Assembly (NCBI GenBank): GCA_963703285.1
Contig: OY969807.1
Coordinates: 320,001 to 384,000, forward strand
Source: an uncultured Nitrososphaerota archaeon
Lineage (GTDB): Archaea; Thermoproteota; Nitrososphaeria; Nitrososphaerales; Gagatemarchaeaceae
Direction of reading: 5' to 3'
DNA: 64,000 nucleotides
In this document: positions 2 to 22,520 of the stretch, in pieces
How the letters are laid out: each line of letters starts with the position of its first letter
How positions within the stretch are numbered: the stretch's first letter is position 1
The notes under the pieces: model-generated
What the model was told of the DNA's origin: nothing
Seen by the model: only the letters and a program-made list of their open reading frames with translations
Databases searched by the model: none
Made by a program: the position numbers and the translations under genes

Positions 2-616
2 TGGATTCAGAGGTTCATCCCTCAAATCTCCGAATATGTCAATTCCCTGACTCCACAACTCTCCGACACTTGGCACGCAGATGAGCTGTTCGTCAAGATG
101 AAGGGCGGGGTCAAGGAGAGCCAGTACGGTCAGAAGAACATGGCCTTCCTTTGGAACGTGATGGACAGGAAGACGCGGTTCCTTCTCGCCTCCAAACTGT
201 CTGAGAAGCGGTGCGTGGTCAGCGCGGCAGGCGCGTTCAGGGAGGCGATTCAGAACGCCCATGAGAGCAGACCGGAGAGAATCTTCACCGACGCGCACAA
301 GTCATACAAGGATGGAATCGAGATTGCCTTCGGTCAGGAGCGCCCCGAGCACATCGCCAAGGCGGGCATGGGCAAGCCCCACGCCAACAACAACCGCATA
401 GAGCGGTTGAACGGGACGCTCCGCGAGAGGGTCAAGGTCCAGCGCGGATGGAAGAGCATGACTTCACAGATCGCCGAAGGTCAGCGTATCCAGTATAACT
501 TCGTCAAGCCTCACATAGCCTTGGATGGGCAGACACCTGCGCAAGCGGCGGGTGTCGGCATAAACGGGAGAGACAAGTGGATGGAACTGCTTAAGAAAGC
601 CATGATACAGGGATGA
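2..616 (+). CDS. IS6-family DDE transposase, 5'-truncated by the window edge
   Basis: Frame is open from nt 2. WHADELFV (first D), IFTDAHKSY (second D) and NNNRIERLNGTLRER (E) match the IS6/IS240-type DDE triad. Confidence 0.9.
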   Translation, partial: WIQRFIPQISEYVNSLTPQLSDTWHADELFVKMKGGVKESQYGQKNMAFLWNVMDRKTRFLLASKLSEKRCVVSAAGAFREAIQNAHESRPERIFTDAHKSYKDGIEIAFGQERPEHIAKAGMGKPHANNNRIERLNGTLRERVKVQRGWKSMTSQIAEGQRIQYNFVKPHIALDGQTPAQAAGVGINGRDKWMELLKKAMIQG

Positions 617-628
617 TGCAGGTAAGCC

Positions 629-841
629 ATGAGAATGTCCGTCTCGGAGGTGGTCGAGATAGCCAAGAAGTTTGTAAGATCACAAGCGGGCTACTCCAGT
701 GTAGAAATTGCATCCGTAGACGCTCTCACACAGCAAGGGAGATGGAAGGTGCTCGCTGACGTGGGATTATTTGCGACCATGAGAAAGGAACTGATAATTG
801 ATGATAGCGATGGAAACATCCTCTCCTACAGGCAAATTTGA
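629..841 (+). CDS. Small hypothetical protein, PepSY-like alpha/beta pattern
   Basis: 70 aa; 'EVVEIAKKF...WKV...IIDDSDGNILSY' resembles PepSY-like folds; lower GC than host genes. Confidence 0.55.
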   Translation: MRMSVSEVVEIAKKFVRSQAGYSSVEIASVDALTQQGRWKVLADVGLFATMRKELIIDDSDGNILSYRQI

Positions 842-1404: not shown

Positions 1405-1434
1405 GACCCGTCACCCCGCTAACGAAGCAGAACC
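1405..1434 (+). repeat. 30-bp repeat copy 2 (second putative IS6 right IR)
   Basis: GACCCGTCACCCCGCTAACGAAGCAGAACC; direct repeat of 1253-1282. Confidence 0.9.
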
Positions 1435-20339: not shown

Positions 20340-20630
20340 ATGAAGTACATGACGGACGCCAACGTGAGCGGTCTCGCGAGGGAGCTGAGGGCGCGGGGGG
20401 TCGACTGCGAGACGGTCCACAGGCTCATGCTGGGGAACGAGGACTCGCGCGTTCCGATATCCGACCCCCAGATCGTCAAGTTCCTTTCTGACAAGGGCGG
20501 CTCGATAACCCTAATCACGCTCGACAGCGAGCTCGCCTCCTACTGCGCCGCCTTCGGAATCTCGTGCATCCGGCTGCAGGACCTCGTCATCGAGCACATC
20601 TCCCCCGCAGGAACAAAGCTACCTAAGTAA
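20340..20630 (+). CDS. Small Mut7-C/DUF5615-like PIN-domain protein
   Basis: MKYMTDANV..LARELR..G.D, SD..I and LITLD.EL motifs. Confidence 0.7.
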   Translation: MKYMTDANVSGLARELRARGVDCETVHRLMLGNEDSRVPISDPQIVKFLSDKGGSITLITLDSELASYCAAFGISCIRLQDLVIEHISPAGTKLPK

Positions 20631-20636
20631 AGTAGC

Positions 20637-20661
20637 GGTTCTGTCAACTCTTCGGCTCATG
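20637..20661 (+). repeat. Terminal inverted repeat at the tnpB 3' side
   Basis: GGTTCTGTCAACTCTTCGGCTCATG; contains the tnpB stop codon. Confidence 0.88.
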
Positions 20662-21816
20662 TCCGAAGGAGTCAACTTCCACCCATCTGCTCGGAGGATT
20701 ACCCGCCTTCTCCTGCCTTCGGGGTTCCCCTTCACCGCTTCTTCTGGGTGGCCGAGCCGCACGAACCTGTGCGGCCATCATGATGTTCCTCGATGCGTTC
20801 GCGTCCCTATCCTCGGTCTTGCCGCAAGAGGGACAGATCACCGTCCGTCCCTCGAATCTCTGAGAGGAGCCACACTTCGAGCAGTTTCGGGACGTGTAGC
20901 GCGGGCTCACGTATGTGACGGGGAGACCCTCCCATCTTGCCTTGTACTCGATTTGCCTTTGAATTTCCCGGAAGGTCCAGGAGTTCATCCTGCCTCTGTA
21001 GACGGCATCCTGCCAATTCCCTTTGCGGTAGAGCTTCCGTATCCCTTTCAGCCTCTCCATGACCGCACCGAATCGCTTCCGTTTCGCCTCCTGAACGATG
21101 GCCCTGCTGATCAGGTGAAGTCTGTGAACCGTCCTGTCCTTTTCCCTCCTTCCGTACTTGCGATAGAGGCGCTGGCTGACTCGTCTGTCCTGCCTTGTCC
21201 GATTTCCTATCTTCGCCCTAATGTCCCTATATCGCTCCCTGAGCTCGGAAATCTCGGAGGTGTCGTACCGGGCCACGCGTCCAGACGCGTCTGACGTGGT
21301 GACGTTCCTCTCGTTCACGTCTAGTCCTACGTTACCTGCGATGTCAATCGTCGCGGATTCCTTCGAGAACGCGATCGAGAGGCCCTGAGGCGTAAGAGTG
21401 ATGGAGCCTTTCCTGAGGCTTGAATCGTCGATGAACGCGAGGTGGTACCTGGAGCCCTGCAGGACAAGGTAGACGAACTGCCTGGGCCTGGTCGGGATCC
21501 TCAACACCATGTGGTTCAGGAGGTACGACTGGCTGTCTAGCTTGAGAAAGACGCGCTTCACGTACGGTCGTGACCTTCTCTCCTTGTTGCGATATATCGA
21601 GAATGCGACTTCGCAGGCCGAAAGCAGGTAGTGAGTGTGGAGACCGTACTCCTTCAGGCGGGAGTATGCGAGCCTGATTAGAGCGAACCTATTCTTGGGC
21701 TTCTCCTGCAATGCTATCCTGATGGCGTCGTTGCACATCAGGCGGAAGTCCTCCAGGAGGGAGCCCAGCTCCTGGGAGTAGGCGTAACTGAACCGGACGG
21801 CCCTGACGGCTCGCAC
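20644..21816 (-). CDS. tnpB: TnpB-family RNA-guided endonuclease
   Basis: RuvC-I GLDVN, RuvC-II VMERL, QIEYKA.W.G, YTSRNCSKCG...CPSCG Zn finger, RuvC-III DRDANASRNI. Confidence 0.93.
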   Translation of the reverse strand: MRAVRAVRFSYAYSQELGSLLEDFRLMCNDAIRIALQEKPKNRFALIRLAYSRLKEYGLHTHYLLSACEVAFSIYRNKERRSRPYVKRVFLKLDSQSYLLNHMVLRIPTRPRQFVYLVLQGSRYHLAFIDDSSLRKGSITLTPQGLSIAFSKESATIDIAGNVGLDVNERNVTTSDASGRVARYDTSEISELRERYRDIRAKIGNRTRQDRRVSQRLYRKYGRREKDRTVHRLHLISRAIVQEAKRKRFGAVMERLKGIRKLYRKGNWQDAVYRGRMNSWTFREIQRQIEYKARWEGLPVTYVSPRYTSRNCSKCGSSQRFEGRTVICPSCGKTEDRDANASRNIMMAAQVRAARPPRRSGEGEPRRQEKAGNPPSRWVEVDSFGHEPKS

Positions 21817-21847
21817 ATCTTCTCTGTTCCGCCGAATACTTAAGCGC

Positions 21848-21872
21848 CATGAGCCGAAGGGGTACTAGAACC
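21848..21872 (-). repeat. Terminal inverted repeat at the tnpB 5' side
   Basis: Reads inward GGTTCTAGTACCCCTTCGGCTCATG. Confidence 0.88.
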
Positions 21873-21914
21873 AAAGTAGCAAAGGTTTTAACGAGTCGGG
21901 CCGGCCAAACTCTC

Positions 21915-22520
21915 ATGGCTAAGACCTACACTCTTCCGCCGCTGCCGTACGCCTACAACGCTCTCGAACCGTACATATCGCAGCAGATAATGACGCTGCA
22001 TCACGACAAGCACCACAACGCCTACGTGACGGGCGCGAACGCAGCCCTCGACAAGCTCGAGAAGGCGCGGGCGGGGCAGATGCAGATTGACGTGAGGGGC
22101 GTCCTCAGGGACCTGAGCTTCAACCTGGACGGCCACAAGCTCCACTCTCTCTTCTGGCCGAATATGGCCCCCGCAGGAAAGGGAGGAGGCAAGCCCGGAG
22201 GGAAGCTGGCCGACAAGATCGACGCCGACTTCGGGGGGTTCGACAAGTTCAAGCAGCAGTTCGGAGACGCGGCCAAGGCCGTGGAGGGTGTGGGATGGGC
22301 CCTCCTATGTTACGATTCTGAACTGGGTCAACTCATGATGACACAAGTCGAGAAACAAAACGTGATGCATCTGGCCGAACTCCCAATTCTGCTGGGCTGC
22401 GACGTTTTTGAACACGCATATTACTTGCAGTATCTGAACGACCGAGGAAAGTACGTCGACGCTTGGTGGAACGTGGTGAACTGGGACGACGTCGGGAAAA
22501 GGCTGGACAAAGTGAAGTAG
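21915..22520 (+). CDS. sod: Fe/Mn superoxide dismutase
   Basis: LPPLPYAYNALEP, HHDKHH, GH.LH..FW, DVFEHAYY motifs. The ORF-track ATG at 21849 lies inside the TIR. Confidence 0.95.
   Translation: MAKTYTLPPLPYAYNALEPYISQQIMTLHHDKHHNAYVTGANAALDKLEKARAGQMQIDVRGVLRDLSFNLDGHKLHSLFWPNMAPAGKGGGKPGGKLADKIDADFGGFDKFKQQFGDAAKAVEGVGWALLCYDSELGQLMMTQVEKQNVMHLAELPILLGCDVFEHAYYLQYLNDRGKYVDAWWNVVNWDDVGKRLDKVK

Follow-up and report, generated by a model that had tools for sequence, protein, structure and literature searches.

A tnpB gene as the sole cargo of a probable IS6-type transposon beside a host promoter in a Nitrososphaerota archaeon

Introduction

Nearly all that is known of the biology of TnpB, the ancestor of Cas12, comes from IS605 and IS607 elements, which leave no scar on excision. 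The locus described here raises the question of what moves a tnpB gene that is enclosed instead by inverted ends and a target-site duplication (TSD). It lies in a stretch of 64,000 nucleotides from an uncultured Nitrososphaerota archaeon (GenBank assembly GCA_963703285.1, contig OY969807.1), called the window throughout, which corresponds to G000:C1:320001-384000 of a 2.25-Mb genome assembled in one contig and 96% complete; the tnpB-only element itself occupies window 20637-21872. A sequence-only reading of the window had proposed that this is a non-autonomous element mobilised in trans by an IS6-type DDE transposase. Comparison within the genome and with related genomes supports that proposal. 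We put at roughly 80% the probability that the element is a non-autonomous IS6-type transposon whose sole cargo is a TnpB/omega-RNA module, and the case that an IS6-like DDE transposase would mobilise it in trans is well supported by the same comparisons.

Statements on published work refer here to the accessible portions of the texts cited. TnpB elements of the IS200/IS605 and IS607 families have no inverted ends, make no duplication and need a Y1 or a serine TnpA (PMC13565253). Altae-Tran et al. (2023, PNAS; PMC10691335) described six branches of DDE-transposase-associated TnpB (DDE-1 to DDE-6), named IS630 as a partner, thought that solo TnpBs with the same ends were mobilised in trans and drew the parallel with Fanzor. 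ISL2, IS630 and IS1031 are the DDE partners given in a 2026 review, in the accessible text of which IS6 is not named (PMC13565253). DDE-associated TnpB, as a general phenomenon, is already published. The sequence-only reading had been unsure on this point: the inverted ends, the solo copies moved in trans and the likeness to Fanzor are all in PMC10691335, while no mention of IS6 as a partner occurs in the portion of that paper seen.

The IS6/IS26 family has been reviewed as having short inverted ends that begin with GG, an 8-bp target duplication and a DDE_Tnp_IS240 transposase (PMC7986276). Its classical members are 0.7-0.9 kb long and carry a transposase only, a single passenger-carrying member, ISDsp3, being listed; long transposases with N-terminal zinc fingers (clades h and i) and miniature inverted-repeat transposable elements (MITEs) are known, a replicative cointegrate mechanism is known for IS26, and TnpB is not mentioned in the part of the review available (PMC7986276).

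Results and Discussion

Structure of the tnpB element

The element is 1.24 kb long and is bounded by two 25-nt inverted ends, 80% complementary (20/25), with a perfect 8-bp duplication (8/8) directly outside both arms. Direct reading and an independent repeat search agree on this structure, as the sequence-only reading had described it, and both ends start with GGTTCTG, that is, they are IS6-type inverted ends beginning with GG. The features of the element and its immediate setting are as follows (window coordinates; RE and LE denote right and left end).

20629-20636, no strand: TSD on the RE side (tnpB 3' side), AAAGTAGC, identical to 21873-21880
20637-20661, plus strand: RE terminal inverted repeat (TIR; tnpB 3' end), GGTTCTGTCAACTCTTCGGCTCATG; 17/18 and 18/25 identical to the right inverted repeat (IRR) of IS6_B, an IS6-like element elsewhere in the genome
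20643-20751, minus strand: omega-RNA-like structured region overlapping the tnpB 3' end, with the scaffold end ...AGUUGAC AGAACC at the element boundary (coordinates converted by hand from the RNA alignment)
20644-21816, minus strand: tnpB, 390 aa, GTG start; PF07282 and NF040570
21836-21844, minus strand: TATA-like box CTTAAGTAT, about 25 nt upstream of the tnpB start; presumed internal tnpB promoter
21848-21872, minus strand: LE terminal inverted repeat (tnpB 5' end), reading inward GGTTCTAGTACCCCTTCGGCTCATG; 20/25 identical to the RE repeat
21873-21880, no strand: TSD on the LE side, AAAGTAGC; its last three bases, AGC, and the next AAAGG correspond to GAGCAAAGGCTTTAAC in unoccupied relatives
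21881-21892, plus strand: host promoter (transcription factor B recognition element, BRE, and TATA box) of the superoxide dismutase gene, AAAGGTTTTAAC, immediately next to the duplication
21915-22520, plus strand: sod, Fe/Mn superoxide dismutase; PF00081 and PF02777

A single long open reading frame (ORF), tnpB, lies between the arms. No DDE_Tnp_IS240 transposase is encoded; therefore the element is at most a non-autonomous relative of IS6 and not an IS6 insertion sequence proper. Within the window the motif CTTCGGCTCATG, internal to the repeats (up to one mismatch), occurs only at the two ends, giving 2 matches where 0.39 are expected, which is weak evidence by itself, given that 5 of 100 shuffles also reach 2. 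Chance is ruled out for the pattern of ends and TSD by its recurrence in a second copy in the genome and in 15 copies in relatives, with other duplications.

The product of the gene matches the TnpB family profiles PF07282 (Cas12f1-like_TNB, E-value 9.8e-24, 83.7 bits against a cut-off of 26.3) and NCBIfam NF040570 (guided_TnpB, 116.9 bits against 100), as well as Cas12f/TnpB chains in the PDB, down to 3.7e-14. It has the RuvC-I D (GLDVNE), RuvC-II E (AVMERL) and RuvC-III D (DRDANA), which we take to be the catalytic residues from the familiar motifs and the alignment to Cas12f/TnpB chains, and a CxxC...CxxC zinc finger. Among 17 aligned copies the D/E/D columns are kept in 17/17, 17/17 and 16/17, the exception being a truncated copy, and the four zinc-finger cysteines are mostly kept. 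The ratio of nonsynonymous to synonymous substitution (dN/dS) is 0.15-0.30 in seven pairs, an eighth being saturated, and 0.18 between the window tnpB and its genome paralogue. By these measures purifying selection acts on TnpB, its RuvC site is intact, and the retained D/E/D residues and the low dN/dS make it look functional.

A family of elements with the same ends

The second copy in the genome, at 2133252-2134474, is 84% identical, has the same GGTTCT start and is flanked by ACGG(G)ATA at either end. Matches to the element in 18 genomes of the same genus begin in many cases exactly at the first G of the repeat, and copies at 65-85% identity have in common a start at GGYTCT. In a first set of 11 loci both ends could be read in seven, with a decayed left end in L034, L039 and L040; a second set of 33 loci yielded nine complete tnpB elements and one 688-bp element without tnpB, the others being cut by contig ends, lacking a credible second end within the fetched stretch or representing the ends of other elements. 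An automatic TIR/TSD search on 16 loci was clean for three (the window copy, L069 and L071) and otherwise returned noise from decayed left ends, so that the ends of the remaining copies were read by eye.

Seventeen tnpB elements, the window copy included, have both ends, and their flanks agree at 8/8 positions in ten, 7/8 in five, 6/8 in one and 4/8 in one, the last explained by a one-base indel. All 17 duplication sequences differ, so these are independent insertions, and the expectation that other tnpB copies would share the ends but not the duplication is borne out. Nine TnpB-type loci are present in the genome; a right end of this kind recurs in three further paralogues, two of them with duplications of 8/8 or 7/8.

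IS6-like elements as the candidate source of transposase

The end consensus of the IS6 family is GG(C/T)TCTGTTGCAAA. A profile search of the genome with PF13610 (DDE_Tnp_IS240, the IS6 family domain) matched three loci.

IS6_A, about 1357534-1360319: inverted repeat GGTTCTGCTAACTCGG...; duplication CCCCGAAG, perfect
IS6_B, G000:C1:1251536-1256161, outside the window: inverted repeats GGTTCTGTTAACTCT(C/T)CGTCATCG; duplication CGACAGCG, perfect
IS6_C, extending into the start of the window, transposase at window 2-616: inverted repeat GGTTCTGCTTCGTTAGCG...; no matching 8-bp flanks seen

Over its first 18 nt the RE repeat of the tnpB element agrees with the IRR of IS6_B at 17/18 positions, with IS6_A at 12/18 and with IS6_C at 10/18. 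The suggestion that the cognate enzyme may be another IS6 member than the one within the window agrees with this, IS6_B having the 8-bp duplication as well. When one mismatch is allowed, the 19-nt pattern GGYTCTGTYRANTCTTCGG has five matches in the genome, namely four tnpB-element ends and the IS6_B end, against none for the reversed control. Across the order the pattern occurs in 91 of the 251 genomes sampled (90/250 without the unpublished genome G130) and in 36/72 genera, with a handful of matches for its reversed control, and a TnpB homologue is found at E<=1e-25 in 51/251 genomes and 22/72 genera. By the count of the end pattern, transposons of this kind are widespread in soil Thaumarchaeota.

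IS6_B encodes an intact 406-aa zinc-finger/DDE transposase (G000:C1:1254934-1256151) that scores 56.4 bits with PF13610 (cut-off 27) and 102.5 bits with the NCBIfam IS6 equivalog NF033587 (cut-off 125). Its passenger, an 805-aa gene with an NPPF motif, looks like a putative N6-adenine DNA methyltransferase or restriction-modification fusion. Similar transposases, 57-64% identical, occur in the genus, and matches at E<=1e-20, more distant IS6-like proteins included, are present in 17/23 genomes. Seven of 15 such loci fetched from relatives are complete elements of 2.0-2.6 kb, all with perfect 8-bp TSDs and GGYTCTG ends; in the other eight the right end was not found by the end search or the contig stops. 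Among IS6-like elements with both ends, 9/10 have an 8/8 duplication, IS6_C having none. IS6 elements in relatives have CGGCTCGCG where the motif of the sequence-only reading has CGGCTCATG, and some of their inverted repeats read ...ACGGCTCGCG against ...TCGGCTCATG in tnpB elements.

The same ends are also found on elements that have no transposase, of 688 bp (with a VOC/YjdN-like gene), 414 bp and 763 bp, all with 8/8 TSDs. The first of these (L102, G014:C7:118683-119370) has the perfect duplication GACAAACC and a 167-aa VOC/YjdN-like gene (PF06983), and was considered as a deletion derivative of a tnpB element and rejected as such, the match being limited to the first 34 nt. Its genome, G014, has only a weak IS240 match; it also holds three copies of the end GGCTCTGTCAAGTCTTCGTTGGGTAAGGGTGGGCGCTTAA (L101, L103 and L104), each 5-7 nt from a TATA-like box. 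The sharing of ends and TSDs with both IS6-like and transposase-less elements leads us to conclude that the tnpB element is most likely moved in trans, as one cargo cassette among several in an IS6-like transposon system.

The process would then run as follows. An IS6-like transposase acting in trans, for which the 406-aa zinc-finger/DDE protein of IS6_B or a relative is the best candidate, would bind both ends and insert the element with 8-bp staggered cuts, presumably in a copy-in/cointegrate mode by analogy with IS26, at a target adjoining promoter DNA that the machinery would select. Transcription of tnpB would start from a TATA box of its own, situated just within the left end, and the omega-RNA would run through the RE repeat into the flank with a guide matching the unoccupied site. 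TnpB could then serve in homing or retention, the role that it has in IS605 elements.

An omega-RNA-like structure that includes the right-end repeat

RNAalifold on the last 180 nt of 15 copies, read on the tnpB strand, gives a common fold of 22 pairs, eight of them with compensatory changes. Paired cells amount to 97%, a share that falls to 27-43% if the partners are shifted by 1-3 columns, and covariation at the observed level is reached in 0/500 shuffles; Rfam has no match for the structured region at E<=1. In the last helix GUUGACU is paired with AGUUGAC, the complement of bases 7-13 of the RE repeat, so that these bases form the 3' arm of the helix and the scaffold would end ...AGUUGAC-AGAACC at the element boundary. 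A read-through omega-RNA would accordingly carry a guide that starts with the target duplication, AAAGTAGC being its first 8 nt. The RE end can also form a small hairpin, CTTCGG...CCGAAG.

The two repeats are tied to the gene as well. The tnpB frame ends in most copies at a TGA or TAA inside the RE repeat, and the LE repeat is directly followed by the TATA-like box some 25 nt before the start codon, with TTTATAC or TATATTT at the same place in other copies; this box is presumed to be the tnpB promoter. Integration of both repeats in the tnpB module speaks against an ordinary tnpB element dropped into an older MITE, an explanation raised in the sequence-only reading that does not fit an RE repeat lying within a covarying RNA and holding the stop codon, nor an LE repeat abutting the presumed promoter of the gene; the RE repeat is accordingly not a separate older shell.

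Insertion beside host promoters

Beyond the duplication on the tnpB 5' side the flanks of the 17 copies are A-rich at +1 to +3, with G at +4/+5, T at +8 and A at +11 (15/17 each), T at +12 and C at +15. Their consensus, AAAGGnTTWWATAnC, is presumably an archaeal BRE/TATA promoter directed toward the neighbouring gene. An AT-rich 7-mer at +4 to +13 past the TSD occurs in 15/17 LE flanks, in 2/17 RE flanks and at 5.5% of random genome positions (binomial p 1.6e-17 for the LE flanks), and all 17 copies have one orientation, with the tnpB 5' end toward the promoter (p 1.5e-5). At the window locus the promoter concerned is that of sod, which is conserved in seven relatives without the element.

IS6-like elements with a transposase, and those with other cargo, mostly have a TATA-like box in this register too, at one or other of their flanks, as judged by eye. 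The register is clear for IS6_A, IS6_B, L053, L055, L061, L102, L127, L128 and three G014 ends, and is missed or unclear for L056, L057, L062, L063, L129 and L130. This shared target register connects the tnpB cassettes with the IS6-like machinery in a second and independent way. AAA directly past the LE-side duplication distinguishes 8/17 tnpB copies from 0/13 non-tnpB elements (p 0.004), and is present in 1/4 further non-tnpB elements (L127); the LE-like end of the 688-bp VOC-cargo element likewise faces a TATA box. The last two observations suggest that the bias may come from the ends rather than from TnpB.

A tentative proposal, which we consider on balance unlikely, would connect these features: IS6-like insertion would be aimed at promoters, always the same distance upstream of the BRE/TATA box, the complement of the BRE (5'-CCTTT or TTT) beside the duplication would serve as the target-adjacent motif (TAM) of TnpB, one orientation would give a guide that cuts the empty site, and the RE repeat would be used twice. 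Such a TAM would explain the orientation in 17/17 copies, because an insertion turned the other way would yield no guide, made up of duplication and flank, able to cut the empty site. If the proposal were true, the target choice of a transposase and the TAM of a guide-RNA nuclease would be fitted to one host signal, and the RE repeat would have two roles, being bound by the transposase and forming the final helix of the guide RNA scaffold. Ty3 and Tf1 are promoter-targeting elements; precise promoter-side insertion in these archaea, should it reflect active targeting, would parallel them in prokaryotes, and could offer a handle on TBP/TFB-bound DNA in archaea.

Weighing the IS6 origin against its alternatives

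Several observations weigh against an IS6-type transposon moved in trans. The two ends of the window copy are alike at just 20/25, and this copy may have lost its mobility. The likeness of the IS6_B ends to those of the tnpB element breaks down past nt 18 (18/25 ungapped), and the IS6_B transposase, being below the NCBIfam cut-off, is IS6-like rather than canonical. None of the seven complete IS6 elements carries both an IS6 transposase and tnpB, and the match lists of the genus, to which the search was confined, contain no case of the two genes in proximity. Very fresh copies (22/22 TIR, 7-8/8 TSD) occur in G005, a 90%-complete assembly of 200 contigs that has one weak partial IS240 match and no IS6_B-like match at E<=1e-20. 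Four of the 11 copies in the first set (L034, L038, L039 and L040) have no readable second end or matching flanks, L038 having both repeats and no adjacent duplication, and several more distant copies retain the RE end alone. The exact empty site was found neither in seven diverged relatives in which sod comes after the upstream ORF with no element in between, nor in contigs from four soil-metagenome runs; the intergenic DNA of these relatives is about 75% alike, so that a single AAAGTAGC is unreadable and only the promoter part, GAGCAAAGGCTTTAAC, aligns. The whole case is built on sequence comparison.

The alternative that survives best is that the window copy is a fossil, an old IS6-type insertion now immobile, in which tnpB is kept for a host or selfish function unrelated to present mobility. 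Its ends agree at 20/25 against 22/22 in the fresh G005 copies, its genome paralogue is only 84% identical, and many distant copies have lost the LE end and retain the RE end. The soil runs, which come from one study and contain parts of the stretch (shares 0.08-0.38), show occupied junctions only: the left junction is bridged by two records and the right by one, no contig joins across the element, which makes them uninformative on polymorphism, and the flank of the second copy of the genome is found on one contig. We consider such fossilisation quite unlikely in view of the perfect TSD, the intact ORF and the dN/dS of 0.18 against the paralogue; it concerns the present state of the copy and is compatible with an IS6-type origin.

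It is highly improbable that the element is moved by another DDE family that makes 8-bp duplications (for example IS1595, ISL3 or IS256), with a convergent or generic likeness to IS6. Such a family is at hand, since the genome has two 100% identical IS1595-type copies of 1314 bp in inverted orientation (G000:C1 about 1213745-1215058 and 1243356-1244669), and the match to IS6_B fades after nt 18. The IS1595 ends, CGCTCATGTGACTG..., are unrelated to those of the tnpB element, however; the 19-nt end pattern is confined in the genome to tnpB-element ends and IS6_B, and the IS6-like elements of relatives have the same end type, TSD length and promoter-side target.

Scarcely any credence can be given to an ordinary IS200/IS605 (IS1341-group) or IS607-type element dependent on Y1 or serine TnpA, with repeats and duplication that are coincidental or belong to an older MITE: TnpB does weakly match the IS200/IS605 and IS607 TnpB models, the RE hairpin is possible, and the sole serine recombinase of the genome (PF00239) is paired in the IS607 manner with another TnpB paralogue (locus G000:C1:684749-686262), but that locus lacks such ends, Y1 TnpA (PF01797) has 0 matches in the 96%-complete genome and is present in 1/23 genomes of the genus, and neither the 17 independent insertions with different 8-bp duplications nor the common GGYTCT start of copies at 65-85% identity agrees with this view.

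Relation to known systems

The element thus described shares with the branches in PMC10691335 a prokaryotic TnpB within an inverted-repeat transposon and a tnpB 3' end less than 250 bp from the transposon end, and one of DDE-1 to DDE-6 may be the same TnpB clade; it differs in the probable IS6-like partner and the apparent promoter-side targeting, neither of which is mentioned in the portion of that text seen. The IS6-like partner, the double use of the RE repeat and the promoter-side insertion in one orientation appear to be new details. We found neither an IS6-TnpB link nor promoter-targeted archaeal insertion sequences in the parts of the literature covered, although Fig. 4 and Additional Files 10-11 of PMC10691335 may already contain the IS6 link. 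A survey of thaumarchaeal mobile elements counted IS200/IS605 by ISsaga, and its accessible text does not mention TnpB (PMC6563490).

Like IS6/IS26, the archaeal elements have GG-starting inverted ends and an 8-bp duplication; unlike classical IS6 members, they are 2-4.6 kb long with cargo or lack a transposase, and the partner falls below the NCBIfam IS6 cut-off. With the IS1341 group of IS200/IS605 and with IS607 the window element shares a TnpB whose omega-RNA, here a predicted one, extends from the 3' end of the gene to the right end, with a guide taken from the flank, whereas it differs in its inverted ends and 8-bp duplication, and in the lack of a Y1 match in the genome. It resembles Fanzor in eukaryotic DDE transposons in that a TnpB-family nuclease travels as a passenger between TIRs and TSDs, although Fanzor has eukaryotic or viral hosts, larger proteins and other transposon superfamilies (PMC3627910, PMC10530073).

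In contrast with the IS605 and IS607 setting, TnpB stands here in a transposon with inverted ends and target duplications that most likely depends on a DDE enzyme in trans. This raises the questions of what use a homing-type nuclease would be to a transposon that probably copies rather than excises, how one 25-nt end can serve transposase and guide RNA alike, and how the elements locate a spot just upstream of archaeal promoters.

Minor observations on neighbouring and other mobile loci

A 96-aa ORF without a Pfam family lies directly left of the element, at window 20340-20630; between the transaldolase-like gene and sod it is present in some relatives and missing in others. A near-identical TnpB match to the IS607-type paralogue, at 635281-635487, has no recombinase match alongside. 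IS6_C (G000:C1:317994-321434, its window part being 1-1434) is 3.3 kb long with perfect 40-nt inverted ends, GGTTCTGCTTCGTTAGCGGGGTGATGGGTCGGGGTGGTTC, and has two small passenger ORFs, at window 629-841 and 798-1226, and a third copy of its end 152 bp further on, at window 1411-1434. In the two IS1595-type copies the sequence to the left of one recurs to the right of the other (CGGTTTT / TAATGAA), a pattern that would result if recombination between the copies had inverted the roughly 29 kb separating them.

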